IMG/VR virus record: IMGVR_UViG_3300035665_000034
Location: 1 to 61,662 of that record
Strand: one strand, 5' to 3'
Length of the DNA stretch: 61,662 nt
Source of the DNA: a virus
Lineage: Duplodnaviria; Caudoviricetes
Of the stretch, positions 8,371 through 32,348 are shown piece after piece. How positions within the stretch are numbered: position 1 is the first letter of the stretch; each line of letters starts with the position of its first letter. Both the position numbers and the translations under genes were made by a program. Below the pieces are notes generated by a model. That model saw nothing but the letters and a program-made list of their open reading frames with translations, was not told where the DNA came from and did no database searches.

Positions 8371-8398
8371 GTACGCCCGACCTCGCGATCCGTTTACG
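8371..8398 (-). promoter_or_regulatory. ECF-type promoter CGTAAA-N17-CGTAC (copy 1)
   Basis: One of 8 copies with fixed 17-nt spacer. Confidence 0.7.
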
Positions 8399-8883: not shown

Positions 8884-9135
8884 GGCGCGAAGGTCTCCGA
8901 GCTTCGCGCGAATCGCGCGGCACTCGGCGAGCACGAGTGCGGTGTCGATGAACCGACACGTCTTGTCGTCCCGAAAGAACGCAGTCACGAGCGCCATGTT
9001 CGCCTTTGAGTAGGGCGCGCCGGCCCGCTCGGGCAGGGCGAAGCACGCGGTCGCCGGGTTGCGGTCGTCGTTGGTGAGTTCAACGGCGACGTGGTAGGCG
9101 ACGTCAAAGTCTTGATTCGAGTATCGAGCCCACAT
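8881..9135 (-). CDS. cassette protein, 84 aa (MWARYSNQ...)
   Basis: ATG directly after type-A repeat RBS. Confidence 0.7.
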   Translation of the reverse strand: MWARYSNQDFDVAYHVAVELTNDDRNPATACFALPERAGAPYSKANMALVTAFFRDDKTCRFIDTALVLAECRAIRAKLGDLRA

Positions 9136-9265
9136 TTTCGTTTCTCCGTTCGTTCGTTTTCGTTTCGCTTCTGAAAATGAAGATAGACGAAGACGCTCTA
9201 GAAGAAAAGAAAAAAGCGCACTAGGCCGGCACTTTGTTCGAGGGCGTTCTGCGCCAACGCCTTCA
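9136..9265 (-). repeat. type-A promoter/RBS cassette repeat A1
   Basis: + strand cores CGCTTCTGAAAA and AGAAGAAAAGAAAAAAG; spans stop to start. Confidence 0.95.
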
Positions 9266-9715
9266 GGCGTCGCAGGGCGAGAAGACCTCGCCGACGTAGC
9301 CGAGGGCAGTTCGCAGGCTCGTCGCGGTGTGCCAGCGTGGGTCGCCCCACGGAAAGAGTTCGAGCATCTGGTCGGCCTGAATCGTCCCGCCTTCGTCGCT
9401 CGCCGCGTAGACCTCGCGGGCGAGGTCTGCCGCGCCGCCGTCGTCCACGCGAACGGCGAGACCCGGGTGAAACTCGACAACCTGCGGGCCTTCGGCCCGG
9501 GCGTCGGCTTCGGTGTCGAGCAGGAGCGCTTGCAACGCCTCGCCGTGGAGCCACGCCCCGGTCTCGTCGAGCGCCAGCGAGTCGTCGGGCTCGTCGAGCG
9601 TGACCTCGAACTCGCCGACGACGACCGCGACGAGGAGGGGTTGCATGTGCTCCAGCCACGCGGAGCACTGACGAGCCGTGCCCTCGAACTCACCCTTGCA
9701 CGTTGAAAGTTTCAT
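9263..9715 (-). CDS. acidic cassette protein, 150 aa
   Basis: Preceded by the RBS/leader part of the repeat. Confidence 0.7.
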   Translation of the reverse strand: MKLSTCKGEFEGTARQCSAWLEHMQPLLVAVVVGEFEVTLDEPDDSLALDETGAWLHGEALQALLLDTEADARAEGPQVVEFHPGLAVRVDDGGAADLAREVYAASDEGGTIQADQMLELFPWGDPRWHTATSLRTALGYVGEVFSPCDA

Positions 9716-9755
9716 CTTCGTTCTCCGTTCTTTCGTTTCGTTCGTTTTCGTTTCA
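9716..9755 (-). repeat. truncated type-A repeat (leader/RBS part only)
   Basis: cttcgttctccgtt...ttcgttttcgtttca, lacking the promoter core. Confidence 0.7.
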
Positions 9756-9953
9756 GGCGACGACGTAGCCGTTGGCGTTCATCGTGCGGATGTAGCCTTC
9801 GAGCGCGTTCAACTGAACCCGCGTCTTCAGCGTCGAATCTGCAATCGTCTGCGCGACCTGCGCCGTGTCCGTCGGGTCGCCGCCCGCCTTGAGCACCGCG
9901 CGGCGGGCTGCGAGGACTGAAAGCTGAATCGTGATCTTCGTCGTGCCGTTCAT
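9753..9953 (-). CDS. cassette protein, 66 aa
   Basis: ATG follows repeat A2. Confidence 0.7.
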   Translation of the reverse strand: MNGTTKITIQLSVLAARRAVLKAGGDPTDTAQVAQTIADSTLKTRVQLNALEGYIRTMNANGYVVA

Positions 9954-10073
9954 TTCGTTTCTCCGTTTCGTTTCGCTTCTGAAAAAGAATGTAGCGCAGG
10001 ACGTTCTAGAAGAAAAGAAAAAAGTTCACTCGTGACGCTCTTTGCTTCAGGTCGTTGCGAGCCAACGCCTTCA
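9954..10073 (-). repeat. type-A repeat A2
   Basis: Both cores present. Confidence 0.95.
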
Positions 10074-10304
10074 AGCGCGGCGCGCGTGCTCGGTCGCGTA
10101 GGTCCGGGCCATCGAGATCGCGAACTCTCGCGAGGCTGCGGGCAGGTCGCGGGCAGTGAAGATCAGGCCGTACTTGGTGCGAAGCTGAACGACGACGAGG
10201 CCCCCGATCTCCGTGGTTTCAAGCGCGTAGCTGCGACGACCGATCTTCACGATCTCGTGGGAGCTTTTCACGGTCTCGTTCGCGTTCTTCTCTGCGTTGC
10301 TCAT
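10071..10304 (-). CDS. cassette protein, 77 aa
   Basis: Bounded by A2 and A3. Confidence 0.7.
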   Translation of the reverse strand: MSNAEKNANETVKSSHEIVKIGRRSYALETTEIGGLVVVQLRTKYGLIFTARDLPAASREFAISMARTYATEHARRA

Positions 10305-10436
10305 CTTCGTTCTCCGTTTCGTTTCGTTTTCGTTTCGCTTCTGAAAATGAAGATAGACGAAGACGTCGCAGAAGAAAAGAAAAAAGTTAACTGTCGTGCG
10401 CTTTTCCTGAACGCGTTGTCTCGCAACGCTTCGCGC
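10305..10436 (-). repeat. type-A repeat A3
   Basis: Both cores; distal ~43 bp identical to A9. Confidence 0.95.
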
Positions 10437-10475
10437 CGACGACGTATCAGCTTCGCCCGTGCGGCGAAGTCTGGA

Positions 10476-10931
10476 TCACCACGCCTTGCCCTCGTCGGTC
10501 AGGCGCACGCCGCCGTTGAAGCTCGGGCGAAGAAGCGCCGCTCGCCAGTAGCCACGGTCGCCGAAGGTCGTCGTGTTCGTTCCGCGCCCCGGTCGGGCGC
10601 GCGACTCGACTCGGCCCGACGATGTTCCGACGTAGAAGAAGTTTGCACTCTCGCCGAGCAGCACTTCGCCCGGTGCGAGGTTCAGTTCGGGCAGCGGCGC
10701 CTCGCGCCCCAACGCGAGCGCGACGAGTCGCGCGCGGGGCATGTCGACGCGTTCGAGCCCGCCGTCGCCACCGTGCGCGCGGGCGAAGACGATGCCCCGC
10801 GCTTCGAGCGCGTCGAGCAGGGCGTCGACTGCGCGAAGCTCGACCTCGCCGAACGCGGGCTCGGCGGCAGGCTCGGGGCGCGGGAACACGATGCGGACGC
10901 TAGACGACTTTTTTCTTGCTCGTTCGGCCAC
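10476..10931 (-). CDS. hypothetical protein
   Basis: GTG start with GGGAG RBS. Confidence 0.6.
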   Translation of the reverse strand: MAERARKKSSSVRIVFPRPEPAAEPAFGEVELRAVDALLDALEARGIVFARAHGGDGGLERVDMPRARLVALALGREAPLPELNLAPGEVLLGESANFFYVGTSSGRVESRARPGRGTNTTTFGDRGYWRAALLRPSFNGGVRLTDEGKAW

Positions 10932-11047
10932 TTTTCGTTCTCCCTTTCAATCCCGAAGGGATTGAAGCTCGTGTTTTTCGCGTCGACTTTGGCCGACTTC
11001 AGCGCTTCGGCTCTGCGCGACGAGTTCGGCGTTTCGTCACTCGTCGT

Positions 11048-11614
11048 TCAGTCGGGCTCGCCTTGTGCGCCCCACCACGCGCGCGGTTCGTTCTTGTTCA
11101 CACGCTTCAGGGCTTCGCTCGGCTCCCACAACGGTGCTGCGACGCCGAGCGCTGCGCTGAACCCGGGCGCGATCATGTCCTCGACCTCGCCGAGCCTCGT
11201 CAGCGGGAAGTCGTCGGCGTTGTAGTGCAGCGCCAACACGCCGACGAACATCATCAGCCGGTGGTAGTTGAGCGCGACGAACTGCGCCTGCGTCCACCAT
11301 CCGACTTCGTTGAACTCGGGCTCGTCGAAGACCTCGTCCGCGCGCACTTCGAGCGCCGAGCACTCAATCGCGAAGCGCCGCGCGATGCGTCGGAACTGCT
11401 CGTGGTCGAGCGTGAGGAGAGCAGCGTGCGCCGGCTCTAGAACGTTCTTCAGGAAGCCCTCGTCGTGCCCTCCGGTGAACAGCGCGATGGCCGACACCAG
11501 CGCGAGCGCCTTGTCTTCGATGTTCTTGCCCTTCGCGATCTCGGCGACGTGTTCAGCGAGCCAAGCATCACGTTCGCGAATCTTCGCAACGATTTCTTCG
11601 ATCTTCTCGTCCAT
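11048..11614 (-). CDS. hypothetical protein (MDEKIEEIVAKI...)
   Basis: Internal ATG with purine-rich RBS; protein-like composition. Confidence 0.65.
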   Translation of the reverse strand: MDEKIEEIVAKIRERDAWLAEHVAEIAKGKNIEDKALALVSAIALFTGGHDEGFLKNVLEPAHAALLTLDHEQFRRIARRFAIECSALEVRADEVFDEPEFNEVGWWTQAQFVALNYHRLMMFVGVLALHYNADDFPLTRLGEVEDMIAPGFSAALGVAAPLWEPSEALKRVNKNEPRAWWGAQGEPD

Positions 11615-11655
11615 TTTCTTCCCCGCTTTCGCGCCTCGTTTTTTGGCGCTTCGTT

Positions 11656-12072
11656 TCAGGTTTCTTCGCCGTCGGCGTTGATCCAGATCGTCGCGCCTGA
11701 CGGGCCGCGCCATCCGCCCGACCACGAGTGCGCGCCGCCTGTCGTTGAGCCTTCGCCTCGCATCCGGCGCGCGTAGCGTCGCGCTGCCTTCTTCGCGGCG
11801 TCCTCCGTCGCGTGCCGCGACCAGACGCAGAGTTCGCCCTCCGGGTCGCTGTTCTGCTCCCACACGCCTGCGACGTAGGGCAACGCGACCTCGCGCGCCT
11901 CGCGCTTCTCGCGGGCGACAAGGCACTTGAAGCGCGCGATGTCGGCCTTCGCGTTGCGAAGCCGCGCCCGAAGCTGCTCGACGGCCGCGTGGTCGCCGCG
12001 AGCCTTCGCGGCCTCCAGCGCGCCGCGCGCGTGTCGAGCGACTGACATGGCGTCCTGATACTTCGTCGGCAT
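11656..12072 (-). CDS. hypothetical protein
   Basis: AGGAG RBS within type-B repeat. Confidence 0.65.
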   Translation of the reverse strand: MPTKYQDAMSVARHARGALEAAKARGDHAAVEQLRARLRNAKADIARFKCLVAREKREAREVALPYVAGVWEQNSDPEGELCVWSRHATEDAAKKAARRYARRMRGEGSTTGGAHSWSGGWRGPSGATIWINADGEET

Positions 12073-12156
12073 CGTTCTTCTCCTCGTTCGTTCTTCGAGG
12101 CGTTCGAGTTCACGCTCGGACGTCTCGAAGAAGGCGCGAAGCTCTCGGGCTGTTCA
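12073..12156. repeat. type-B intergenic hairpin repeat, copy 2
   Basis: Stem 12091-12107/12116-12132. Confidence 0.75.
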
Positions 12157-12351
12157 GACGCGGTTGGCGATCACGAACTCGCCCGTGGTCGCCTTGCGAT
12201 ACGCGAGAGCGACCGCGCCGCGCTTGCCGGTGAGCATGTAGGCGATGCCGTCCCACCCTCGCGCCTTGAGATCCTGCGCCAAGAAAGGCCCGGTCTCCGT
12301 CGCTTCGACCTCGTAAATGCGCCCGTTGATCGTCGTGTTCGTGATGCTCAT
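12154..12351 (-). CDS. cassette protein, 65 aa
   Basis: ATG follows A4. Confidence 0.7.
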   Translation of the reverse strand: MSITNTTINGRIYEVEATETGPFLAQDLKARGWDGIAYMLTGKRGAVALAYRKATTGEFVIANRV

Positions 12352-12482
12352 TTTCGTTTCCTCGTTCGTTCCGTTTCGTTGCGCTTCTGAAAATGAAGAT
12401 AGCGCAGGGCGTCGCAGAAGAAAAGAAAAAAGTCGTTAGCTCGTGCGCTTTGTTCTGCTCGCGTTCTGCGAGAGCGACTTCA
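12352..12482 (-). repeat. type-A repeat A4
   Basis: Both cores. Confidence 0.95.
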
Positions 12483-12716
12483 GGCGTTGCAATCCTCGGA
12501 CGCCCACGCTGCGGCGAGCGCGTCGGCGTAGCACTGATCGACGAGCGCGAGAATCTCGGCGCCTACTTTCGCCGTCTGCGCCTGCTCCCACACCTTGAAC
12601 GCGGCCTCGGCGCGCTCGAAGGCGTCGGCGATGGCGTTCGCGTTCGCGATCTCGCCGAGGTAGTAGGCGGTGCGGGCGGCCATCAGGGCTTTGCGGTCGA
12701 TCTCGATGTAGCTCAT
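12480..12716 (-). CDS. Ala-rich helical cassette protein, 78 aa (MSYIEIDRK...)
   Basis: Bounded by A4 and A5. Confidence 0.7.
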   Translation of the reverse strand: MSYIEIDRKALMAARTAYYLGEIANANAIADAFERAEAAFKVWEQAQTAKVGAEILALVDQCYADALAAAWASEDCNA

Positions 12717-12847
12717 TTTCGTTCTCCGTTTCGTTTTCGTTCGTTGCGCTTCTGAAAAACAAAGTAGCGCAGGACGTTCGAGAATGAAAGAAAAAAGTTC
12801 ACTCGTGACGCGCTTTGTTCGCGTCGCGTTCTGCGAGAGCGTCTTCA
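12717..12847 (-). repeat. type-A repeat A5
   Basis: Cores present (variant AGAATGAAAGAAAAAAG). Confidence 0.95.
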
Positions 12848-13171
12848 GACGCTCACGGCCGCGACGTAGGCGGCGTTCGCGGCAACGTAAGCAGCGTCCC
12901 GGGCAGCGTCGGCGGCAGCGTAGGCGGCAGTGAAGTCCGCATGGGCCTTGTTGAGAATGCCTCGGAGCGCAACGTCGGACGCCTTCTCGAACGCAGTCGT
13001 CCCCGCCCGCTCGGTGAGGATCGCGAGGTTGTAGGCTGCGGAGATTGCGCCGGAACGAACGGCGTCCCAAGCCTTGAAGGCGTCGATTCGGGAGGCGACA
13101 TACTCGTCAGCGGCGACGGCGTAGGCAGCGACGAGTTCGGCGGTGGCGAGTTCAGTGTTCTTCGTGTTCAT
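12845..13171 (-). CDS. Ala-rich helical cassette protein, paralog of 17920-18240
   Basis: Ungapped alignment to 17920-18240. Confidence 0.75.
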   Translation of the reverse strand: MNTKNTELATAELVAAYAVAADEYVASRIDAFKAWDAVRSGAISAAYNLAILTERAGTTAFEKASDVALRGILNKAHADFTAAYAAADAARDAAYVAANAAYVAAVSV

Positions 13172-13302
13172 TTTCGTTCTCCGTTTCGTTTTCGTTCGTT
13201 GCGCTTCTGAAAATGAAGATAGACGAAGACGTTCGAGAAGAAAAGAAAAAAGTTAACTCGCCGTGCGCTTTGTTCGCGTCGCGTTCTGTCGCAACGCGTT
13301 CA
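13172..13302 (-). repeat. type-A repeat A6
   Basis: Both cores. Confidence 0.95.
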
Positions 13303-13644
13303 GTTCGTTTCGAGCGGCTTCGTTGCGCGACGAACTGCGCGGCCGAACGCGATGCCCATGCCCATCTGCGCGCCGCGCCCGCTGAACCTCGCCGCGAACT
13401 TGCGGCCCGCCCTGTCGCGCACCTTGTCGGCCTCGACGGTTACGATCCCGTTGTGCGCGTTGACCCGTGCCACGACGCCCGTCCACTTCACTTCGCCCGT
13501 CGCCTCGTCGAAGACCTCGACGGGCTCGCCCGTCTTCAGCCCGAGCCCGGCGAAGCTCTTGGGCGTCAAGCCCGGGTGCGTGTGTGGCTCGGGCTTCGCG
13601 CCGTCGATCTCGGCCGACGCGTAAGCGCGTGACCTGTTACCCAT
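13300..13644 (-). CDS. hypothetical protein, small beta-barrel-like
   Basis: LKTGEPVEVFD...WTGVVARVN..NGIVTV pattern. Confidence 0.55.
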   Translation of the reverse strand: MGNRSRAYASAEIDGAKPEPHTHPGLTPKSFAGLGLKTGEPVEVFDEATGEVKWTGVVARVNAHNGIVTVEADKVRDRAGRKFAARFSGRGAQMGMGIAFGRAVRRATKPLETN

Positions 13645-14443
13645 TGTCGGTCTCCTCGACGTCGAGTTCGCCTTCGAGTTCAGCGCCGCGTTCGTCGACG
13701 CCGCACGCGAGAGCGATCACGCCTTCGGCCGTCGCCGTGTCCTTCGTGGGATGCATGAGCCGCGTGCGCCCCTGCGCTTTGCGCTCGCGCATGATCCCGG
13801 CAATCGCTTCGAGGTGCCCGAGTTGTTGCGCCTTCATGGCCTCGCCGAGCGGCGTGCGCCACACGGCGTCGCCCTTCGGGTGCGCCTTGTCGACGGCCAG
13901 CACCTCGCGCCTGCGCTCGACGAGTTCGGCGTCCCGGTGCGGCGACGGGAGCACGGCGCAGGGCGCGAACGTCAAGCGACCCTCCCCGAAGCCGTACAAG
14001 GGCGCTTGCAGGGCGCCTGCGCCGTCGGGCGCGCTCATCGTCTGGACGATCACGATGTCGCCCTCTACGAGCCCGCTACGGCCCGGGAAAGCGACCTCCG
14101 CGAAGTGACTGCCGCCGATGCGTGCGCCGTCGATGGCGAGCGGCGAGAAGTTGCGGACGGTCATCTTCGGCAGACTGCGGAGAACGACGAGATCGCGGAG
14201 CGGCCGAAGAACGTCGAGCGCGTTCAGGTCGCGCAAGTATCGCCGCACTTCGCGCAGAGCGCTGGCGGCGCTCGGGTAGGCAATCGTCGACATCGACGTC
14301 CGAACGCCGAGGTCGACGAACTTCGCGAACGCGAAGAAGCCGAGATCGACCTCGAAGACCTCGACCGTGTGTCGCTCGACGCGAACGCGGGCGACGCGTC
14401 GCGCCTTGCCCCATCCGGCGAGTGCTCGTTCGCGCGCGCTCAT
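13637..14443 (-). CDS. hypothetical protein
   Basis: ATGA overlap with upstream gene. Confidence 0.6.
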   Translation of the reverse strand: MSARERALAGWGKARRVARVRVERHTVEVFEVDLGFFAFAKFVDLGVRTSMSTIAYPSAASALREVRRYLRDLNALDVLRPLRDLVVLRSLPKMTVRNFSPLAIDGARIGGSHFAEVAFPGRSGLVEGDIVIVQTMSAPDGAGALQAPLYGFGEGRLTFAPCAVLPSPHRDAELVERRREVLAVDKAHPKGDAVWRTPLGEAMKAQQLGHLEAIAGIMRERKAQGRTRLMHPTKDTATAEGVIALACGVDERGAELEGELDVEETDNG

Positions 14444-15165
14444 CGTCGAGCCAACGCGCCGAGGGCGCGCTCGATGGGGGCGAGGGCGCGCGACAGGCCC
14501 GCGCGTTCGAGGTCGAGCGCTTCGATCTGCGACGTCAACGTCGCGCGCCTGCGGTCGAGTTCGGACTTCACGCGCTGGACGTTCGAGACCTCAGACGCGC
14601 CGATGCGCCCGTCGAGCAGCTTCTCAAGGTCGCCGTGCGTCTCGCGCCACGCGTCGATCATGGCGAGCACGCGATCACGCCGCGCGCTCCAACGCTTCAT
14701 CGCATCGGCGTCGCCGACGAAGTATTTCATGCCCGGTTGCGCGAGCCCGAACAGGCTGTCGGCGCGCGTGAGAACGCGCGTCGTCTCGTCGCTCGCGGTC
14801 GTGCTCTCGTCCCACGACTTCATCGCCGCCGCGATCTGCCGCGCCTCGTCGCGAAGGTGCGGCGGGAGTTGCGTCGAGACCTTCAGCGCCTTCGGGCCGT
14901 CGGCCATCTTGAACTCGTCGGCGAGCCGTTCGAGTTGCCGCGCGACGTAGTGCGCTCGCGCGAGCTTGTGCGTCGGGATGCGTTCGCCGACGGGCTGAAC
15001 ACCGAAGCGAACGACGTCGCCCTCGACGGTCATGTCGCCGAGCAGCGTCTCGAAGGCGAGAAAGGTCGTGTCGGCGTGGAGCGTCTTCTCGCTCTCGATG
15101 GCGGTCGCGATTGCGTTCGCAATCGTCTCCATCGTGAGCCCGTCTTCATCGTCGATGCGCGGCAT
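14440..15165 (-). CDS. hypothetical coiled-coil protein
   Basis: Downstream of ECF-type promoter copy 2. Confidence 0.65.
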   Translation of the reverse strand: MPRIDDEDGLTMETIANAIATAIESEKTLHADTTFLAFETLLGDMTVEGDVVRFGVQPVGERIPTHKLARAHYVARQLERLADEFKMADGPKALKVSTQLPPHLRDEARQIAAAMKSWDESTTASDETTRVLTRADSLFGLAQPGMKYFVGDADAMKRWSARRDRVLAMIDAWRETHGDLEKLLDGRIGASEVSNVQRVKSELDRRRATLTSQIEALDLERAGLSRALAPIERALGALARR

Positions 15166-15200
15166 CGTTGCGGCCCTTTCGTTCTGCGTTCGTGTCTCTG

Positions 15201-15228
15201 ATACGTCGCAGGCGTCGGGAGCTTTACG
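15201..15228 (-). promoter_or_regulatory. ECF-type promoter CGTAAA-N17-CGTAT (copy 2)
   Basis: 17-nt spacer; includes TAA of upstream gene. Confidence 0.75.
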
Positions 15229-16174
15229 TCGCGGCCCAAAAAACCTGCCCGTCGCGCTTCGCGCGCGTGGCGAGCCCGAGCTTGGCGAGTCGGAACAGGA
15301 CAGAAGGCGTGCCGCGATGCCGCCCGACGTCGCCCCACAATGCGCGTGCGAACGCCTGCGCGGTCATCGGCCCGCGTTCGCGGAGGAGCGCGAGTCCGCG
15401 CGCCTCGTCGCGCTCGACGTGTTCGAGCTTCAACGCGACCGCCCCGCCGAGGATGAGCGCGCGGACTGATTCGCTGACCGACTCGCCGTAACGCTTCGCG
15501 CGTTCGTCGACGATGCTCCAGCCGTTCGCGCTCATGCGGAGCGTCGTCGACTTCGAGTTTCGGATCGTCTCGTCGGAGTAGCGGTCCTCGCGCAGCGGCG
15601 GGCCGACGGGCGTCTTGCTCGCTGCAACGATCAACGACTCGCACTCGACGCCGCGAGACGTTCCGTTGACGAGCACGAGCGCGTCTACGAAGCGCAGGAT
15701 CGAAGGTCCGATGGCGACGCCTCGGTCGAGTCTCGGTTCGGCGTCGCGTGCCCGCATGTCGGCCTCGACGCGGCGCACTTCGCGCGCAAACTTCGCGGGC
15801 GTGATCCCGAGCGACTTCAGAACCTCGGAACGCCTGACCGACGCCTCGCGCGCGGCGACCTCGCGGTCGACTTCAGGACGCGCCTTCGCGACGGCTGCGC
15901 CGCGCGCGATGAGCGCGCGAAGAAGCGCGGCGTCTTCGATCTCAGGCGCGACGAACTGCCGCCAGCGTCGAGCAACGTCTTCGACGCGGAGCGCGTCAAT
16001 CGTGAGCGAAGCGCGGCCCTCGACGCGATCAACGGCAGGGATCGGGAGCGGCGGCGAAGTCATGCCGTCCGCGAGGCGCACAAGCGCGATGCACTCGTCT
16101 GCGTTCGTTCGCGTTGCGACGCGCGCAAGCTCGGAGACGCGCGCGTGGAGCCACTTCGGCGCGCTGATTTTCAC
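15224..16174 (-). CDS. putative DNA-binding protein (RHH-like segments plus C-terminal winged HTH)
   Basis: STTLRMSANGWSIVDERAKRYGESVSESVRALI; LLRERGPMTAQAFARAL...LFRLAKLGL. Confidence 0.5.
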   Translation of the reverse strand: MKISAPKWLHARVSELARVATRTNADECIALVRLADGMTSPPLPIPAVDRVEGRASLTIDALRVEDVARRWRQFVAPEIEDAALLRALIARGAAVAKARPEVDREVAAREASVRRSEVLKSLGITPAKFAREVRRVEADMRARDAEPRLDRGVAIGPSILRFVDALVLVNGTSRGVECESLIVAASKTPVGPPLREDRYSDETIRNSKSTTLRMSANGWSIVDERAKRYGESVSESVRALILGGAVALKLEHVERDEARGLALLRERGPMTAQAFARALWGDVGRHRGTPSVLFRLAKLGLATRAKRDGQVFWAAT

Positions 16175-16662
16175 GAGTCGCCCGACGCGAACTGTCGTCG
16201 CAGGTCGTCGGGCACGACGACGCCGACCGACTCAAGAACCGCGATGGCCTGCGTTGCGATCTCGGGGTCGAGCGCGACGCCGGAAGGGTTCGGCGCGGTC
16301 GTGATCGCCTCGGCAGTCGAGCCGAATGCGGCGCGTCTTCGCTTCGCGAGAAGCCATTGATGGGCGCCGACTTGAACGCTGCTCTCGGCGTCGTGGACGA
16401 GCTTCAGCGAACGAATCACGCCGCGCGAATCAGCGCGACGGACTGCCGTTCGGAAGTCTTCGATCTCGTGTTCGGCCTTCGTGACTGCGGGCCGCTCGGG
16501 CTCGCGCAGCCAAGCGCGGAACGTCGCGACGGGCACGCCCGCCGCATAACAGGCGTCGTCGACAGGGGCGCCGAGGCCGATGAAGGCGAGCAGTTCCGCG
16601 CGCTGCGTCTCGCCCAACTTCGTTGGCGACTCGACGTCCTTCTTCGCGCGCTTGGCTCCCAT
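16171..16662 (-). CDS. terminase small subunit-like HTH protein
   Basis: G.PVDDACYAAGVPVATFRAWL...F...V.RA...QWLLAKRRRAAFG pattern. Confidence 0.6.
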   Translation of the reverse strand: MGAKRAKKDVESPTKLGETQRAELLAFIGLGAPVDDACYAAGVPVATFRAWLREPERPAVTKAEHEIEDFRTAVRRADSRGVIRSLKLVHDAESSVQVGAHQWLLAKRRRAAFGSTAEAITTAPNPSGVALDPEIATQAIAVLESVGVVVPDDLRRQFASGDS

Positions 16663-16669
16663 CGGCAGG

Positions 16670-16699
16670 AGCCTAAGCGGCGAACGGTCGGCGCGTCAA
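16670..16699 (-). promoter_or_regulatory. sigma70-like promoter TTGACG-N18-TAGGCT, 7 nt before ATG
   Basis: Close match to -35/-10 consensus; no RBS, so probably leaderless. Confidence 0.6.
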
Positions 16700-16715
16700 T
16701 CGCGCCCGGTCGAGG

Positions 16716-17381
16716 TCAGACCTCGACGATCTTCCTGCCGCGACGCGGCGTCGCGCTGACTACGACGGCGGCCTCGCCGCTCGGCGTGGTCTCGACGTGC
16801 TCGGCGCCGAGCGCCTTGAGCTTCGATGCGTCGAGCGACGTGGCTTCAGCGCGGGCGCGAGCGTGTTCGCGCCCTCGCCGCACGGCGGCCTCGACCTCGC
16901 GGTTGACGGGCTCGGGCGCGGGCTCGGGCGCGCTGGCGAGCGAGGCCTCGAAACTCGCCACGTCTTCGGCGAAGGTCTCCGTCGTCGGCTGGCGCTCGAT
17001 CACCAGCGACGTCGAGATCGAAGCGTCGACGGCGCGCTCGACGGCGGGCTCGTCGCTCGCGGGCGCGGCCTCGGCCTTCGCGAGCGCCTTCGCGAGCCGT
17101 CGCTCCAGCTTCGCGATCTCGGCGGCAGGTCGGCCCTTCTCGCGGGCGACCTCGATTGAGCGCCGGTACCACTTCATCGTCCTGTCGCTCGGCAGCCCAC
17201 GAGGGATGTGCTCGGTGCTCGTCGCGCTGCCCGCGACGCGGGGCGCGCGCCCCGATGCGCCCGCCTCCGCGCTCGCGGCGCGGAGTTCCGCTTCGAGTCG
17301 CCCCATGGCTGCGCGCACGTCGCGCAGCGCGGCGATCTGAATCTCGATGGCGGCGATGAACTCTTTGGCCTGCTCGATCAT
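16716..17381 (-). CDS. hypothetical protein
   Basis: GGAG RBS; Ala/Glu-rich. Confidence 0.6.
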   Translation of the reverse strand: MIEQAKEFIAAIEIQIAALRDVRAAMGRLEAELRAASAEAGASGRAPRVAGSATSTEHIPRGLPSDRTMKWYRRSIEVAREKGRPAAEIAKLERRLAKALAKAEAAPASDEPAVERAVDASISTSLVIERQPTTETFAEDVASFEASLASAPEPAPEPVNREVEAAVRRGREHARARAEATSLDASKLKALGAEHVETTPSGEAAVVVSATPRRGRKIVEV

Positions 17382-17439
17382 GTTCTCTCTCCGTGCCGCA
17401 CGTTTCGGCGGCGTTCATGCCCGGCGTTCGGGCGTTTGT

Positions 17440-17790
17440 TCAGTTCGACGCGCTGCCGGTTTCCCCGGCGATGATGGCCTTCGCAAGCTCGACGTTGAGC
17501 TTGCGGCGGACGAGGTTCTTGATTCGGGCGACCGCGCCGCCCGTCGCGAACTCGCGCCAAGGCTGAACGCCCCGGCTTGAGTTGCACTTGCGGCAGGCCG
17601 TCACGAGGTTGCTCGGCTCGTTCGAGCCGCCTTCGCTTGAGCAGACGAGGTGGTCGAGCCCGATTTCCTCGGGCTTCGCGTTCTTCAACGAGGTGCCGCA
17701 GTAGGCGCAGCAGAAGTCGTCCCGCATGTAGATTGCGAGCCGCTTCTCAACTCGAATCCACTTGCTGCCCTGTCCTGCTTTGCGTGCCAT
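17440..17790 (-). CDS. HNH endonuclease
   Basis: RDDFCCAYCG...LDHL...GGSNEPSNLVTACRKCNSSRG. Confidence 0.9.
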   Translation of the reverse strand: MARKAGQGSKWIRVEKRLAIYMRDDFCCAYCGTSLKNAKPEEIGLDHLVCSSEGGSNEPSNLVTACRKCNSSRGVQPWREFATGGAVARIKNLVRRKLNVELAKAIIAGETGSASN

Positions 17791-17922
17791 CTTCGTTCTC
17801 CGTTTCGTTCGTTGTGTCGTTCGCTTCTGAAAACGAATGTAGACGAAGGCGTTCGAGAAGAAAAGAAAAAAGTTACCTAGCCGTGCTTTTTGTTCTGCGC
17901 CCGTTCTGTCGCAACGCGTTCA
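17791..17922 (-). repeat. type-A repeat A7
   Basis: Both cores. Confidence 0.95.
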
Positions 17923-18240
17923 GGCGCTCATCGCGGCAGCATAAACGGCGTTCGCCTCGTCGATGGCAGCGGCGTAGGCAGCGGCGTAGGCTTCGCAGGC
18001 GGCAGCGAAAACGGCGTGGGCTTCATCGCACGCGGCGTACATCGCTGCGGCGTACTCTCTCTCGAAGGCGACGGTGCCGGGAGCGGCGGCGCGGAACGCG
18101 GCAGCGTAACCGGCACCGGGAGCAGCAGCGCGAGCCGCGACGTAAGCAGCGTGGGCTTCGTCTGCCGAACGGGCGCGAACGTCGGCAGCAAATTCGTAGG
18201 CGGCCCCGAGGTCATTCGCGATCTGCTTTGCGTTCTTCAT
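17920..18240 (-). CDS. Ala-rich helical cassette protein, paralog of 12845-13171
   Basis: Bounded by A7 and A8. Confidence 0.75.
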   Translation of the reverse strand: MKNAKQIANDLGAAYEFAADVRARSADEAHAAYVAARAAAPGAGYAAAFRAAAPGTVAFEREYAAAMYAACDEAHAVFAAACEAYAAAYAAAIDEANAVYAAAMSA

Positions 18241-18367
18241 TTTCGTTCTCCGTTTCGTTTTCGTTTCGCTTCTGAAAATGAATGTAGACGAAGACGTTCG
18301 AGAAGAAAAGAAAAAAGTTCACTGTCGGCGCTTTTTGTTCTGCGCCCGTTCTGTCGCAACGCGTTCA
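18241..18367 (-). repeat. type-A repeat A8
   Basis: Both cores. Confidence 0.95.
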
Positions 18368-18913
18368 GGCGTTTCCGAACCGCTCGGCGAGCGCGACGTT
18401 CGCGCGGTGTGCGTTGAACAGGTCGCCTTGACCTGCGTCGCGCATCGCGGCGAGCACCTTCGCGCGGGCCCGCCCGATGAGAACTGCGCGGGTCGACGTG
18501 CCGTTGCCTGTCGTCGAGAAGGCCCGACGCTCGCCGTCGGTCAGGCGAGCGAAGGCGTCTTCGAGCGCGTGCTCGATCTCGCTCGCGCACTCTCGGGCGC
18601 GAAGCTCGACGTCGGGCGCGAACGTCTCGTCGGCGAAGCGCGCGTCGTCGGCCGCGCTGAAGTCGCCGTCGTCGAGCGTCGACGCGTCCAAGCTCGACTC
18701 GCGCGTGGCCCTTCGCGAGCGACCTCGCAGGTACGAGAGCGCGACGCTTCGAGTCGCCGCCCGAACGTAACCTACGTGCTCGGCGGTCGTGCGGTTCGGG
18801 TCGAGTCGGCCGAGGCACTTGATCAGCGCGTCTTGCGCGACGTCCTGCGCCGCGTCGTCCCGAAGATACTGCCGAGCGGTGCCCTGCGCCGCCTTCACGA
18901 GTTCAGCGTGCAT
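18365..18913 (-). CDS. ECF-like RNA polymerase sigma factor
   Basis: Region 2 AQDVAQDALIKCL..LDP...YV....RSVALSYLR; region 4 remnants ALEDAFARLTDGERRAF and LIGRARAKV. Confidence 0.75.
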   Translation of the reverse strand: MHAELVKAAQGTARQYLRDDAAQDVAQDALIKCLGRLDPNRTTAEHVGYVRAATRSVALSYLRGRSRRATRESSLDASTLDDGDFSAADDARFADETFAPDVELRARECASEIEHALEDAFARLTDGERRAFSTTGNGTSTRAVLIGRARAKVLAAMRDAGQGDLFNAHRANVALAERFGNA

Positions 18914-19328
18914 AGGAATGAAGCTCCTGCTTGACGGCCTCGATCACGGTCGCGTCAAAGTCCTGTTTCAGAATCCAGCGCAGATAGTCGCTCGGAACGT
19001 CGCGGAGCAGCTTGCCCTTGTGCGCGCCGAACCCGATCACGGGGCCGTCTGGCGTCATGTGAATCTTCCCGCCCTTGCCCGGCCTCGGCGCAGTCGTCGG
19101 GCTCGGCGCGGCGGTCGCCGCTGCCTTGCGTTCTTCGGCGATGCGCTTCGCCATGCCGCTGACCGACACGGGCGACGACTCGCGCTCGACGCGTTCTGCT
19201 GCGCCGCCGAACTCCTCGGCGAACGTCGTCGGACGCGGCTCGTCCGCTTGCTTGTAGGTCGCCGTCACCGCGCCCGGTTCGGGCTTCGCGTCGACGCTGA
19301 ACGCCTTAAGGAAGTCCTCGCGCTTCAT
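18903..19328 (-). CDS. protein with C-terminal FG.HKG..L.DVP.DYL.W domain (DUF3820-like)
   Basis: IGFGAHKGKLLRDVPSDYLRWIL. Confidence 0.7.
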   Translation of the reverse strand: MKREDFLKAFSVDAKPEPGAVTATYKQADEPRPTTFAEEFGGAAERVERESSPVSVSGMAKRIAEERKAAATAAPSPTTAPRPGKGGKIHMTPDGPVIGFGAHKGKLLRDVPSDYLRWILKQDFDATVIEAVKQELHSYAR

Positions 19329-21232
19329 CGGGTGCCTCGCTTCTTCAGCAGTTCGCGCAGGATGTGAGTCACCTGCGGGATGATGTCGGCGTCGGTCATG
19401 CAGACGCCGTGGATCGGGTAGAGGTCTTTCACGCCGTTGTGGACGACGCCGAGCCCGGCGACCTCGATCCCGGCCTTGTTCACGAAGTCGACCGCTTCGC
19501 GAAGATGCGGCAGGCCGTTCCGCGAGTCGATGCGCGTCCCGTAGTGCTCGGGGATTCCGTCGCTGACGGTGATCACGATCTTGCGGTTCTCGGGGCGCGC
19601 TGCGACGCGTCGCGCAGCGTGAATCAGCGCGCCGCCGTCGTCATTGTTCGCGCTCCCGGCGAAGCCGTTGAAGTTCGCGGCGCACTTCTCGACGCGCTCG
19701 CCGAACCGGATCATCCGCTTCTCGACCAAGCTCTCGGTGCGCGTCGCGCCGATCAAGTCGCGCGCGTCGACGTGCGTCCTCAAGATGTTCGTGAAGCTGA
19801 CGACCTCGTAAGGCACGCCGCACGCCTCGAAGACGCGACCCATGACGAAGACCGCGCGGAGCGCCATCTCGACGCGCCCGCAAGGACCCATCGAGCCCGA
19901 GTCGTCGAGAAGAATCGTGACGGCCGTCGAGGTCGCCGGGCGCTTCAAGTCGCGCGTAAAGACGCGGCGCTCGCCGCACGAGACGCCTGCAAGCGCGCGC
20001 GAATCGAGCCGCCCCGACTCCTGCTCGCCAACCCGAACTGCGCCTTGAGCGACGAGTAACGAGATCAAGCGCGACGTCGCGCCCTGCGCCGTCGTCTTCG
20101 AGAACGCGAGGGCCCGCGCGACGTGCTCTTTCGGCGCGCTGGACGACTTGATCTCCTCGAACGTGTCGAGCGCCTTCACGCGAGCAGGCGCGACGTCTCC
20201 GCGCCAGCCCGCTCGTCCCGAACGCGCCTTGTCTGCGGCGTCGCCGAGGGCTTCGAGCGCGGCCTCGACCGCACCCTCGAACGTGGGCGCGGAGAGCGCT
20301 TCGTCGAGGGCGATCTTCACCGACTCGCCGTCGGTGCCCGAGTCGCCCTTGACCTTGCCGCCCTTGGCATCTTCGGCCTCTTCGCCCTCTTCGCCGTCGC
20401 TCTCGGCGTCGCCGTCGGCAGCGCCGCCGCCGTCGGCAGCGCCGCCGCCTTCTTCGCCGCCTTCTTCGCCTTCCTCGCCCGAGTCGCCTTCGCTCTCGCC
20501 GTCGGCAGGCTCGCCTTCGCTTTCGCCCTCGCCGGGCTCGGCGGCGTCTTCGGCGTCTTCGCCTTCTTCGCCGTCGTCGCCGGGCTCGCCGTCGTCGCCG
20601 GGCTCGCCGTCGTCGCCCTCGCCTTCAGGGCTGCCGGTCGCGCCCGACAGGGCGAGGATGATGCGTTCGGTGATCTCGACTGCGCCGCGCGGCGTGTCGA
20701 CGGTCGCGACCTCGGCGACGAAGCCGTCGAGCACGCGGTCGATGGCGGCTTGATCCGCCTGCGCCCACGCGGCAGGCACCGCGCGCTTCTGCGCGCGGCT
20801 CATCATGCGGCAGATCGCACGGTGGAGCAGCGGGGCACCGGGCTCGGCTTGCTTGACGGCCCACGCGTGAATGCCGAGAAGGTTCGCGCGCGCCCCGGGC
20901 ATCCGAGCGCAGGCGCGGCGCTCAATACGAACGTCCTCAACCGCGTTCCAGATCGAACGGGCAATCGGCCCGAGCTTGCCGGCGACGTCGCTCGGGCGCT
21001 GGCCCTCGGGCCACATGCGCTCCTCTGCCACATGCGCGCACTCGTGGTCGAGCGCACCCTCGAAGGCGGCCCGCAGTTCGGGCTTGCCCTCGATGTTCCG
21101 CATCGAGGCCGGGATGTAAACCACACCTTGCTTCACGTCAGCGCAGAGTCGCTGCCCGCCGACGACAACCTTCACGCCGCTGTTCAGCGAGAAGGTCTTC
21201 GCGATCCGTTCTGCGTAAGTGTCGAGGTTCAT
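19325..21232 (-). CDS. CobT-like VWA protein with N-terminal HExxH and acidic linker
   Basis: DHECAH...NAVEDVRIE; SGRLD; MIDAS LLDDSGSM; VSDGIP. Confidence 0.85.
   Translation of the reverse strand: MNLDTYAERIAKTFSLNSGVKVVVGGQRLCADVKQGVVYIPASMRNIEGKPELRAAFEGALDHECAHVAEERMWPEGQRPSDVAGKLGPIARSIWNAVEDVRIERRACARMPGARANLLGIHAWAVKQAEPGAPLLHRAICRMMSRAQKRAVPAAWAQADQAAIDRVLDGFVAEVATVDTPRGAVEITERIILALSGATGSPEGEGDDGEPGDDGEPGDDGEEGEDAEDAAEPGEGESEGEPADGESEGDSGEEGEEGGEEGGGAADGGGAADGDAESDGEEGEEAEDAKGGKVKGDSGTDGESVKIALDEALSAPTFEGAVEAALEALGDAADKARSGRAGWRGDVAPARVKALDTFEEIKSSSAPKEHVARALAFSKTTAQGATSRLISLLVAQGAVRVGEQESGRLDSRALAGVSCGERRVFTRDLKRPATSTAVTILLDDSGSMGPCGRVEMALRAVFVMGRVFEACGVPYEVVSFTNILRTHVDARDLIGATRTESLVEKRMIRFGERVEKCAANFNGFAGSANNDDGGALIHAARRVAARPENRKIVITVSDGIPEHYGTRIDSRNGLPHLREAVDFVNKAGIEVAGLGVVHNGVKDLYPIHGVCMTDADIIPQVTHILRELLKKRGTR
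20568..20617. repeat. 18-bp in-frame tandem repeat (GDDGEP) in the VWA linker
   Basis: tcgccgtcgtcgccgggc x~2.8. Confidence 0.8.
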
Positions 21233-21368
21233 TTCGTTTCCCTGTTTTCGTTTCGTCTCGTTCGCTTCTGAAAAACAAAGTAGCGCAGGGCGTTCGAGAA
21301 GAAAAGAAAAAAGTTAACTTTCGTGCGCTTTTCCTGAACGCGTTGTCTCGCAACGCTTCGCGCGTTCA
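21233..21368 (-). repeat. type-A repeat A9
   Basis: Both cores. Confidence 0.95.
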
Positions 21369-22271
21369 GCGCTTGACGTTCCAGCCCGTTACGCGCTGCG
21401 CGACGCCGCCCACATAGGCCCGCTCGGTCTTCCCGAGCTTGTCAGCGACCGCGTAGGCGTAGGCGAGTTCGACGCTGCCCATCGTCTGCGCGAGCGAGGC
21501 CCACGCGAGCAGGCGGCGCGTCGAGAACGTCGCCGAGGTCAGCGGCGATGGCGCGTTGAACGCCTCGCGGATTTCCCCTGCGACCTCGACCATCAGCTTT
21601 GCGCTCTCGGCGGCGATGCCCGTCTTCTCGACGAGCACGTTCGCCTCGACCCGCTTCGTCGGGTAGTCGCACTCCACCGCGACGAAGCGGTCGAGCGTCG
21701 CTTCGTTGAGACGGTTCGTTCCGGCGTAGAGGCCGGACTCGTCGCCCGATCCGATTGTGTTCGCCGTCGCGAAGACGCGGAAGTCGGGATGCGGGCGCAC
21801 GACCTCGCCTCCGTTCGCGGAGAGGGTCAGAACGTGCCCCTTTTCGAGAATCGCCTGAATCGTCAGGGCCAGCGAAGCGGGCGCCGCGTCGAATTCGTCC
21901 AAGATGAGCCACGAGCCCTCACGCATGGCAGCCGTGACTACGCCGTCGCGCCAAGCGACCACGGCGCCCGACTCGCCCTCGATCAAGGTCTGCTCGCCGA
22001 GGAAGTCGGACGACCGGACGTCGCCGTTCAGGTTCATGCGCCGCACGGGGCGGTTCAGAGCGCTCGCAAGCAACATGACGCTCGACGTCTTCCCGCAGCC
22101 CGTCGGGCCGTGGAGCAAGACGGGCAGGTCGAGCTTCACCGCCGCCGCGAGCGCGGCGAGCGTGCCTTTGTCGGGCGCGAAGCCGTCGTCCCACGCGGGG
22201 ACGAGGTGTTCGGTGTCGGCGTTCGTGTCGTGGATGGGCAGCACCACGCTGCCAAACTTGAGGTTCTTCAT
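21366..22271 (-). CDS. MoxR/CobS-like AAA+ ATPase
   Basis: GPTGCGKT, LILDEFD, HPDFRVFATAN, NEATLDRF, STRRL. Confidence 0.9.
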   Translation of the reverse strand: MKNLKFGSVVLPIHDTNADTEHLVPAWDDGFAPDKGTLAALAAAVKLDLPVLLHGPTGCGKTSSVMLLASALNRPVRRMNLNGDVRSSDFLGEQTLIEGESGAVVAWRDGVVTAAMREGSWLILDEFDAAPASLALTIQAILEKGHVLTLSANGGEVVRPHPDFRVFATANTIGSGDESGLYAGTNRLNEATLDRFVAVECDYPTKRVEANVLVEKTGIAAESAKLMVEVAGEIREAFNAPSPLTSATFSTRRLLAWASLAQTMGSVELAYAYAVADKLGKTERAYVGGVAQRVTGWNVKR

Positions 22272-22373
22272 CGTGCGTTCCTTCGTTCGTTCGTCGTCGC
22301 GCTTCTGAAAACGAATGTAGCGCGTGGCGTTTGAGAAGAAAAGAAAAAAGCAACCTACGAACGCGCTTTTTCA
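22272..22373 (-). repeat. type-A repeat A10 (distal part shortened)
   Basis: Both cores; lacks the terminal dyad. Confidence 0.9.
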
Positions 22374-22601
22374 GCGGCGGGGAATCGCGTCGAGGACGTT
22401 CGCCTCGTCGCTCCACGCGGCCTGCGTCTTGACGACGTTCGCGCCGTCGAAGAAGCCGACCGTGGCGGGCTTCGAGCCCTTAACGAAGCGGACGACGTAT
22501 CCGCCGTCCCGGCCTGCCGCCTTGCCCGCCATGTAGATCGAGTCGGTCTCAAGAACCGTTCCGACGCCATCGACACAAGCTGCATAGGAGTAGTGGGCCA
22601 T
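22371..22601 (-). CDS. cassette protein, 76 aa
   Basis: Bounded by A10 and A11. Confidence 0.7.
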   Translation of the reverse strand: MAHYSYAACVDGVGTVLETDSIYMAGKAAGRDGGYVVRFVKGSKPATVGFFDGANVVKTQAAWSDEANVLDAIPRR

Positions 22602-22746
22602 CTTCGTTCTCCGTTTCGTTTTCTGTTTCGGTTCGCTTCTGAAAACGAATGTAGCGCAGGGCGTTTGAGAAGAAAAGAAAAAAGTTTACTCGTCGTGCGT
22701 TTTGTTCGCGGTCGTTCTGCGCCAACGCTTTCAAGCGCTCGAATCA
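22602..22746 (-). repeat. type-A repeat A11
   Basis: Both cores. Confidence 0.95.
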
Positions 22747-22953
22747 GTAGCCCGACCCGATCCAGCGCCCGTCGACCTTGACGTCGAGGGACGAACGGTA
22801 GCCGGGGAAGCACCAGAAATCCCGGCGCCGCCACATGCGCCCGTCCTGCCCGACATACGCCGCGCCGACCCGCGTCGGATACTTGCTCGGCGCACCCGTG
22901 TTGAAGTCGGTCGACTCGATCTCGTGGGCGTCGTCGCGGGTCGTGCTGTTCAT
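22744..22953 (-). CDS. cassette protein, 69 aa
   Basis: Bounded by A11 and A12. Confidence 0.7.
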   Translation of the reverse strand: MNSTTRDDAHEIESTDFNTGAPSKYPTRVGAAYVGQDGRMWRRRDFWCFPGYRSSLDVKVDGRWIGSGY

Positions 22954-23081
22954 CTTCGTTTCTCCGTTTCGTTTTCGTTTCGCTTCTGAAAACGAATGTA
23001 GCGCAGGTCGGTTTAGAAGAAAAGAAAAAAGTTTACTCGTCGTGCGTTTTGTTCGCGTCGCGTTCTGCGAGAGCGCCTTTA
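22954..23081 (-). repeat. type-A repeat A12
   Basis: Both cores. Confidence 0.95.
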
Positions 23082-23312
23082 GGCGCGGCGAGCCTCGTCG
23101 GCAGCGGCGACGGCGGCGTCGAGAGCGGCATAGGCCGCGTCGAGCGCGTCGTTCAGTGCGCGTCGTGCGCCTGCGAAGTTGCGGGTCTGGGCAAGTTCAG
23201 CGGCCGAAGTCGCGCGGTCGTATTCGCGGTGGGCTGCGCGGCAGGCAGCGCCGTGGGCCATGTTCGCGGTTGCGAGTGCGTCGGCGTAGCTGGCGTTCTT
23301 CTCGGTGTTCAT
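23079..23312 (-). CDS. Ala-rich helical cassette protein, 77 aa
   Basis: Bounded by A12 and A13. Confidence 0.7.
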   Translation of the reverse strand: MNTEKNASYADALATANMAHGAACRAAHREYDRATSAAELAQTRNFAGARRALNDALDAAYAALDAAVAAADEARRA

Positions 23313-23438
23313 TTCGTTTCTCCGTTTCGTTTTCGTTTCGCTTCTGAAAACGAATGTAGCGCAGGGCGTTTGAGAAGAAAAGAAAAAAGTTTACTCGTCG
23401 CGTGCTTTTCTTGAAGTCGTTGAGCGCCAACGACTTCA
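23313..23438 (-). repeat. type-A repeat A13
   Basis: Both cores; perfect 11-bp dyad TGAAGTCGTTG/CAACGACTTCA. Confidence 0.95.
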
Positions 23439-32347: not shown

Positions 32348-32348
32348 G

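Follow-up and report, generated by a model that had tools for sequence, protein, structure and literature searches.

What is a stretch of about 130 nucleotides (nt) doing when it stands thirteen times between the genes of a phage, each time filling the whole gap from a stop codon to the next ATG? It could serve to express the genes behind it, or to let them be exchanged, or both. The repeat in question occupies positions 9136-23438 of the IMG/VR virus record IMGVR_UViG_3300035665_000034 (Caudoviricetes). The window analysed here is the entire record, 61,662 bp and linear, with a CheckV completeness of ~49%. We conclude that the repeat is probably a reiterated cassette of promoter and 5' untranslated region in an early, ORFan-rich region, doubling as homology for recombination, in the manner of the promoter-early stem-loop (PeSL) cassettes of T4-type phages but in a new lineage.

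A sequence-only reading of this DNA had described thirteen same-strand copies and one truncated copy, and every one lies exactly where it had been placed, with all starts in agreement. The thirteen full copies, all on the minus strand, are 99-171 nt long (typically ~130), and stop-to-ATG filling was confirmed for 13 of 13 gaps, which begin at the lower coordinates given here:

23313-23438, minus strand: R13, between a PD-(D/E)XK-like gene (stop 23436-23438, inside a hairpin with 11-bp arms) and a 77-aa ORFan, 23079-23312
22954-23081, minus strand: R12, precedes a 69-aa ORFan, 22744-22953; upstream stop TAA in the loop of a 5-bp hairpin
22602-22746, minus strand: R11, precedes a 76-aa ORFan, 22371-22601; true upstream stop 12 nt 5' of the conserved TGAA position
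22272-22373, minus strand: R10, a short copy (99-nt gap) without the 5' hairpin module; precedes the CobS-like AAA+ gene 21366-22271
21233-21368, minus strand: R09, precedes a three-gene unit of CobT-like 19325-21232, a 141-aa gene 18903-19328 and sigma24-like 18365-18913
18241-18367, minus strand: R08, precedes an Ala-rich 106-aa ORFan, 17920-18240
17791-17922, minus strand: R07, precedes a seven-gene unit from HNH 17440-17790 through 13300-13644
13172-13302, minus strand: R06, precedes an Ala-rich 108-aa ORFan, 12845-13171, a paralogue of 17920-18240
12717-12847, minus strand: R05, precedes a 78-aa ORFan, 12480-12716; stop in the UGAA loop of a 7-bp hairpin
12352-12482, minus strand: R04, precedes a four-gene unit of 12154-12351, 11656-12072, ~11048-11650 and 10476-10931
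10305-10478, minus strand: R03, precedes a 77-aa ORFan, 10071-10304
9954-10073, minus strand: R02, precedes 9753-9953
9716-9755, minus strand: leader-only copy with a stop, (ACGAA)n, GGAG and the ATG of 9263-9715, lacking the T tract and the TTTTCAGAAGCG box
9136-9265, minus strand: R01, the last repeat, precedes 8881-9135

A second leader-only junction besides the one at 9716-9752 was seen at 8793-8830, 5' of 8394-8792, where the leader-like AACGAAACGAGAAGAAC abuts the ATG without a promoter part.

The repeat is confined to this array. TTTTCAGAAGCG occurs exactly 13 times, always on the minus strand and within 9166-23350; allowing up to two mismatches adds two matches, both on the plus strand. 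CTTTTTTCTTTTCTTCT has 12 exact minus-strand matches and one with 2 mismatches, where shuffled sequences lead one to expect 0.06 at up to three mismatches; one more match, with 3 mismatches on the plus strand, is unrelated. No further copy was found in the whole record, all copies falling within 9136-23441. Elsewhere, exact-pattern scans returned only single chance matches in AT-rich contigs of IMG/VR, no pattern match in JGI metagenome contigs and two matches, both by chance, in GTDB genome contigs, in collections where records very near the window may be masked. An alignment of the 13 copies spans 159 columns, with a mean column identity of 74% and 51 invariant columns.

Read 5' to 3' on the coding strand, each repeat proceeds from a hairpin at or after the stop codon through a pyrimidine tract, a TAnnTT hexamer resembling a -10 element, the TTTTCAGAAGCG box and a T-free (ACGAA)n leader to GGAG and the ATG. 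Five modules can be told apart. Module 1 consists of the last codons of the upstream gene, its stop codon and the hairpin, and in nine of the 13 the stop keeps to one place in the repeat, 46-47 nt 5' of the T tract. R01, R02, R05, R11 and R12 have a 4-7-bp stem whose loop is a conserved UGAA or UAAA; this tetranucleotide contains the real stop in R01, R02, R05 and R12, while in R11 the real stop is 12 nt upstream. The hairpin is located after the stop in R03, R04, R06, R09 and R13. Module 2 combines two boxes, one AACAAAG-type and one GTnAAC, with the invariant 17-nt pyrimidine tract. Two or three haplotypes of 22 nt make up module 3, which ends in an invariant CTA..TT, and module 4 is the invariant 12-nt TTTTCAGAAGCG box. 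Module 5 comprises 27-39 nt of ACGAA-like units (no T in any of the 13 copies, 40-58% A), followed by GGAG and ATG. Conservation is uneven: T tract, TAnnTT and 12-nt box show little or no variation, and the 22 nt between them differ by haplotype. The layout proposed earlier largely holds. Its TA hexamer is found, as TAnnTT, in 13 of 13 copies. Its CGTT-N7-AACG dyad is less general than claimed, occurring in 9 copies but absent in R04, R05, R10 and R12, and its Shine-Dalgarno (SD)-like GGA(G) reads GGAG in 10 copies but GAGGAA, AGGGAA and AAGGAA in the other three. GGAG or its variant stands 5-7 nt before the ATG.

This anatomy points to a promoter joined to a leader. The repeat changes from T-rich to T-free at the A of CAGAAGCG, 7 nt 3' of TAnnTT, which is the predicted transcription start. 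We infer that the GTnAAC box and the 17-nt pyrimidine tract, at about -44 to -28, act with the -10-like hexamer as the promoter, and that RNA probably begins at the A of the invariant TTTTCAGAAGCG box, 7 nt past the hexamer. The T-free, A-rich leader would be unstructured and favour efficient translation initiation, and the stop-adjacent hairpin may stabilise or attenuate the 3' end of the upstream mRNA. Because every copy carries both promoter and leader, each would start its own transcription unit, most likely read early and by the host RNA polymerase. The position of all 13 copies on the coding strand, filling the gap between stop and ATG, counts for this promoter-leader reading, and the earlier description of the repeats as stop-to-start expression modules is supported.

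Three other functions were considered for parts of the repeat and rejected. The T tract does not qualify as a terminator; it sits 20-89 nt past the stop and no hairpin abuts it. Masking of the SD by the pyrimidine tract in read-through RNA was also considered: minimum-free-energy folding pairs tract and leader in 11 of the 13 copies, and mean SD accessibility was 0.71 in the repeat's own transcript, 0.40 in read-through RNA and 0.50 ± 0.13 with the upstream part shuffled. We dropped this idea because the shuffled value shows the effect to be mostly generic. Promoters of the extracytoplasmic function (ECF) type have spacers shorter than 19-20 nt. The distance from the GTnAAC box to the nearest conserved CGT is 19-20 nt, too long for such a promoter, and no other part of the repeat is as poorly conserved as the position at N16. 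An Rfam scan of 8500-24500 gave two chance-level matches only (E = 0.11 and 0.53), both well under the gathering scores; the minus-strand match lies outside the repeats, and the plus-strand match merely overlaps the upstream end of R12.

Of the 13 units that begin with a repeat, eight have a single gene, namely those of R13, R12, R11, R10 (the CobS-like gene), R08, R06, R05 and R03; the other five, of 2-7 genes, are those of R09 (CobT-like, 141-aa and sigma-like), R07 (HNH and six others), R04, R02 and R01. The region is plastic and the repeats lie upstream of ORFans: none of 10 proteins scanned (nine cassette ORFans of 65-108 aa and the 150-aa product of 9263-9715) matched a PHROG. An Ala-rich, probably helical ORFan family occupies the separate repeat-flanked cassettes 12845-13171, 17920-18240 and 23079-23312, and perhaps 12480-12716. 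The array also encodes a sigma-like protein:

18365-18913, minus strand: probable phage ECF/sigma24-type sigma factor, inside the array, downstream of R09

Its product matches Pfam Sigma70_r2 (E = 7.5e-4, below the cut-off) and the sigma factor PHROG 1740 (E = 2.7e-6), and a homologue with 97% identity bears a sigma-type name in its source; a search of PDB sequences gave no match, which counts against the sigma identity. Relatives at 97% and 79% were present in the protein collection, and none was found in genome contigs or viral contigs.

Distant relatives offer a comparison at two of the repeat junctions. The metagenome contig L178 (4.4 kb, CobS 46% identical to the window's) has a direct repeat of 96 nt with 84% identity, which occupies the whole stop-to-start gap ahead of CobS and again ahead of CobT and holds an A tract followed by TTGACA-N17-GATACT. 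The equivalent junctions in the window are R10 (before CobS) and R09 (before CobT); long stop-to-start promoter repeats therefore seem to be a trait of the wider group. At two further loci, L174 and L177 (CobS identity 49-50%), CobS is preceded by TTGACT-N17-GATACT and CobT by a TTGACC motif. By its sequence, the window's version of the repeat is one with a pyrimidine tract and TAnnTT in place of the canonical hexamers. CobS-based locus searches of IMG/VR and metagenome contigs found no relative above 50%. In the second promoter repeat of L178 (3505-3525), a GC hairpin (CCCGC ACG CGGGG) lies in the spacer between TTGACA and GATACT; PeSLs likewise put stem-loops between -35 and -10.

The copies are mosaics of one another. 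Segment by segment, R03 most resembles R09 (5' module, 89%), R06 (middle, 87%, where R09 reaches 48%) and R11 (leader, 91%). For R05, the nearest neighbours by segment are R12 and R04 (5' module), R02, R09 (96%) and R06 (100%). The pairwise homoplasy index (PHI), computed over 62 informative ungapped sites, was 0.54, compared with 0.85 ± 0.03 for permuted site order, and none of 5000 permutations was as low; some 5' columns of this input are unrelated coding ends, which add noise. The 5' modules of R03 and R09 are near-identical although they stand behind unrelated genes (a 151-aa protein and CobS). Exchange of segments among the repeats is thus borne out by incongruent segment trees and a significant PHI test. 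There is evidence of cassette duplication as well: 12845-13171 and 17920-18240 are paralogous (40% identity over 104 aa, E = 2.5e-17 in a 26-protein database with composition correction off), and 23079-23312 is a weaker third member. To judge from these sequences, the copies have clearly exchanged segments and at least one cassette has been duplicated into a non-adjacent slot. With ~130 nt of shared homology in direct orientation, recombination and gene conversion between copies would homogenise and reshuffle the modules, and would probably also delete, duplicate and swap the genes between them.

Gene content differs between close relatives in the array region. We read strain content from protein clusters (a mate being a protein at ≥90%) and not from DNA, and grouped proteins on the assumption that equal listed sizes mean the same contig; CobT, Mom, 24104-24583 and 24514-25128 are left out of the comparison. 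A 13,499-nt sister contig carries g25271, CobS, g18903, sigma and HNH at 96-98% amino acid identity and has no mate at ≥90% for 23079-23312, 22744-22953 and 22371-22601 (the interval R13-R10) or for 17920-18240 (the interval between sigma and HNH). A 10,057-nt sister contig carries 13637-14443, 12480-12716, 12154-12351, 10071-10304, 9753-9953 and a ParB-like gene at 88-97% identity, and has no mate for 13300-13644, 12845-13171, 11656-12072, 10476-10931, 9263-9715, 8881-9135 and 8394-8792. Identical content in close relatives, which would have spoken against interchangeable units, was thus not what we found. Both genes flanking 17920-18240, and both flanking 12845-13171, are present on sister contigs, while the two genes themselves had no homologue other than the query among 5.8 billion clusters (proteins of 58-189 aa searched). 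Recombination between the repeats is therefore plausible, given mosaic copies, strain differences in gene content and repeat-flanked cassettes without homologues.

The sister strain itself has the repeat at one junction at least. On the 10,057-nt contig one called gene continues across the R04 junction, and its 50-residue extension is translated repeat, including the T tract and the start box; the repeat family is therefore present there. The C-terminus of 12480-12716 differs between strains exactly at the repeat boundary. In Logan contigs from four lake-water runs, ends fall inside repeats (9182, 10349, 10407, 12404, 13274, 17914, 18342, 22663 or 22695, and 23371), and R02 and R10 are bridged in reference order. 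In one run (X4) the R03 leader has lost 5 nt at 10315 and the R07 leader carries small indels (17811-17819), so the number of ACGAA-like units is polymorphic among lake metagenome strains.

How much of this calls for gene shuffling? Several observations weigh against our reading on this point. A missing mate at 90% may mean divergence and not absence, and the search for any homologue covered two genes only. Mates are missing for five of the eight repeat-flanked single-gene cassettes, but also for six of 14 other genes in the spans compared. Of the five variable blocks, R13-R10 and R08-R07 have a repeat at each end, and the remaining three have one at a single end. Among the 15 joints listed (of 35) in the Logan contigs of the four runs, none lies at a repeat; their short sides measure 20-28 letters, under the limit of 30 for trust, none ends in a repeat, and we treat them as noise. 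Since Logan contigs break at the repeats, the lack of joints there says little either way. These points favour an alternative that we consider unlikely but serious, in which the repeats are promoters and leaders with no part in gene shuffling, their mosaicism being gene conversion without change of content and the strain differences arising by illegitimate recombination or divergence. It also accommodates 13300-13644 and 11656-12072, two genes that stand next to their neighbour with no repeat in between and that likewise lack a ≥90% mate in the sister contig. It accounts less well for the two blocks bounded on both sides, for paralogous single-gene cassettes at non-adjacent repeat-flanked slots and for a 5' module 89% identical in R03 and R09 behind unrelated genes. 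Direct repeats of 130 nt are, moreover, good substrates where a phage encodes RecA and SbcCD, and the precedent in PMC2839356 agrees. The content differences may well have arisen by recombination at the repeats.

The promoter part of our reading meets its own difficulties. The hairpins vary in register and are weak, with z-scores from +0.5 to -3.5, and in only two of 13 copies do 5 or fewer of 200 shuffles match them; no U run follows them, and a scan with a terminator consensus found no site in the repeats. No RNA run was present among the runs that hold the phage. Over 8500-24500 a sigma-70 consensus scan found no site, the -35 position reading TTTTCT, with the limit that the host, and hence its consensus, has not been identified; a host sigma-70-type reading is therefore not established. 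The promoter matches of L174 and L177 are not above chance over the whole locus (two found against 1.2 expected on L174). With only ~49% of the genome in the window, a phage RNA polymerase is a possible reader of the repeat. The core could then be a promoter for phage-specific machinery, whether a phage-encoded or virion-delivered RNA polymerase or the host polymerase under the direction of a tract-binding phage factor. We rate this as distinctly improbable. A perfect 17-mer and a 12-mer around the start in 12-13 of 13 copies are more typical of promoters dependent on a phage polymerase or an activator than of sigma-70, no TTGACA-like -35 is present, and half of the genome lies outside the window. 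Yet no RNA polymerase gene occurs among 48 scanned proteins, TAnnTT stands at the right distance from the T-free leader, and relatives have ordinary sigma-70-type promoters at the same junctions; since the array's sigma-like gene itself follows a repeat, the first round cannot depend on the protein it encodes. Still less probable, in our judgement, is that the boxes are mainly binding or processing sites, either operators of a regulator, like stoperators, or RNase sites at which a long polycistronic early transcript is cut into single-gene mRNAs whose 5' ends are uniform. The dyad in 9 of 13 copies and the fixed stop in as many would suit such sites, as would an invariant box where a 5' end would arise, and start- and stop-associated repeats have precedents (PMC3203893). 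The dyad is missing in four copies, however, the hairpin register varies, and an AT-rich tract with TAnnTT in a 66%-GC genome, together with the promoters of the relatives, is more simply a promoter, a reading with which binding or processing can coexist. Finally, a selfish, non-autonomous element inserted between genes, of the kind of a miniature inverted-repeat transposable element, would explain many near-identical copies absent from the other collections searched. It is very hard to reconcile with the array and we give it almost no weight: no terminal inverted repeats flank the four copies in 22250-23460 (only an internal hairpin and a partial 12-nt match occur there), all copies share one orientation, they supply a stop-adjacent hairpin, an SD and the ATG spacing, they fill whole gaps, and no transposase was found.

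The plainer account, that early promoters are reiterated and that recombination follows incidentally from their 130 nt of homology, explains everything seen. A bolder claim is that the 130-nt cassettes are exchange points of gene shuffling by homologous recombination, through which self-expressing ORFan units, all equipped with a non-consensus promoter, a T-free leader and a stop-codon hairpin, are gained, lost, duplicated and moved between co-occurring strains of a previously unsampled freshwater phage lineage, as an integrase-free counterpart of the integron, and that tract and start box form a new type of promoter; this we put forward tentatively, as a possibility we would not bet on. The related proposal that each gene with its repeat is an interchangeable unit analogous to an integron cassette finds backing in the exchange between copies and the variable content, but not in any dedicated mechanism of excision or insertion, there being neither an integrase among the 48 proteins scanned nor an attC-like site. 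Any exchange would be general homologous recombination.

A Pfam scan of 48 window proteins, which does not cover all open reading frames (ORFs), identified the following:

34116-37712: DnaE-type polymerase
31223-32551: RecA
25591-27594: SbcC-like
28792-29901: SbcD-like
within the window: DnaB-like helicase, primase-like protein and UvsW-like helicase
4707-6227: portal, weakly T4-like
6323-7051: Mom
55295-59434: minor tail protein

The sequence-only reading had named neighbouring recombination genes as candidates. RecA and the SbcC-like and SbcD-like proteins are supported by Pfam, and the PD-(D/E)XK-like gene with its stop at 23436-23438 weakly so (PDDEXK_1, 22.6 bits against a cut-off of 22), but neither the single-stranded DNA-binding protein SSB nor the RuvC-like resolvase is among the 48. 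No integrase family and no RNA polymerase gene was found among them either, about half of the genome lying outside the window, and a search for tRNA genes found none. The phage is an uncultivated, high-GC freshwater phage of a new lineage. GC is ~66%, coding frames with high GC at third codon positions are nearly all on the minus strand, and the phage was detected in lake-water metagenomes. Against GenBank phages, megablast and blastn gave no DNA match to the window, and tblastn gave a best match of 31-35% identity for DnaE and none for the portal.

A second promoter-like class of motif, GTAAAG-N16-CGTA, found ahead of replication and recombination genes, has seven exact matches, all on the minus strand, where shuffles give 0.6 at up to one mismatch:

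15202-15227, minus strand: exact site shortly 5' of 14440-15165, inside the R07 unit
25586-25611, minus strand: exact site shortly 5' of 25271-25558
27625-27650, minus strand: exact site shortly 5' of SbcC
29910-29935, minus strand: exact site shortly 5' of SbcD
34094-34119, minus strand: exact site shortly 5' of the ORF ending at 33527
37712-37737, minus strand: exact site shortly 5' of DnaE
42580-42605, minus strand: exact site shortly 5' of the UvsW-like helicase

The motif has a shape that we take to resemble ECF-type promoters, and it may be read by the sigma24-like protein 18365-18913. It is absent from L174. Together with the sigma-like protein encoded in the array, this class would suit a temporal cascade in which the repeats are read first and GTAAAG-N16-CGTA later, by way of that protein.

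Some further features were noted in the window. At 42600-43400, 5' of the UvsW-like helicase, the DNA is AT-richer (GC 0.61 in 42-43 kb), includes runs like TATATGTCTTTTTTGTTGAAC and could serve as an origin or as some other control region. The HNH endonuclease gene 17440-17790 lies near 16171-16662, whose product weakly matches PHROGs of the small terminase subunit, with portal and tail genes elsewhere in the window. The CobT-like gene has 9- and 18-nt tandem periodic repeats at 20340-20640, encoding an acidic linker rich in Gly, Asp and Glu, and a 3-nt insertion polymorphism at 20454 in all four runs.

If confirmed, the array would extend PeSL-style shuffling from T4-type phages, whose hosts have low to mid GC, to a high-GC lake phage that is uncultivated and unrelated to them, and would suggest that reiterated stop-to-start expression cassettes arose convergently as a general means by which large lytic phages maintain fast-changing early ORFans. 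A compact promoter and leader of unusual design could also inform on the transcription and translation signals of the phage's host, and co-occurring strains in public lake metagenomes are a natural experiment for mapping breakpoints.

Several known systems invite comparison with the repeat. The stoperators of Cluster A mycobacteriophages lie near stop codons and bind the repressor. Start-associated sequences (SAS) of Cluster K mycobacteriophages include the SD and sometimes have an upstream inverted repeat, the extended form (ESAS) (PMC3203893). Both kinds are like the window's repeat in being asymmetric, in one orientation, tied to a start or a stop and found in high-GC phages, whereas they are sites of 13-17 bp and not a composite of 130 nt, have no promoter, are unrelated in sequence and serve other functions (that of SAS is unknown). 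The 96-nt repeat of L178 occupies the same two junctions, fills the gap from stop to start and extends well past the hexamers. It differs in its unrelated sequence, its canonical TTGACA-N17-GATACT with an upstream A tract and its two copies visible on a 4.4-kb contig. An integron shares with the array small single-gene units separated by a repeat in one orientation. Unlike an integron, the array has no integrase (among the 48 proteins scanned), no attC-type palindrome and no attI, and each unit has its own promoter-like core in place of a shared Pc.

The sequence-only reading had named PeSLs as the nearest precedent, and the comparison is apt (PMC2839356). PeSLs are cassettes of T4-type phages with demonstrated activity as promoters and terminators and in the formation of mini-circles (Arbiol et al. 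2010, PMC2839356; Comeau et al. 2014, PMC4122927), and recombination between the motifs deletes, duplicates or swaps the intervening genes (PMC2839356). The two systems agree in a reiterated intergenic motif of ~100 nt that leads from the upstream stop through an AT-rich stretch, promoter, stem-loop and SD to the next start, promoter and stem-loop being predicted ones in the window. Both lie in plastic, ORFan-rich regions, mostly before small genes of unknown function, and in both the copies act as recombination homology, which for the window is proposed. The window's repeat is a reiterated stop-to-start composite with an SD, as a PeSL is, but lacks a host sigma-70 consensus promoter, having TAnnTT only (the host consensus is not identified). 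It also differs in its unrelated lineage, 66% GC, a pyrimidine tract in place of the -35, a stricter core, a hairpin placed at the stop codon where the PeSL has it inside the promoter, and a leader of pentanucleotide units free of T; its activities are predicted. The integron analogy overstates the evidence; the array is a PeSL-like system and not a new principle.

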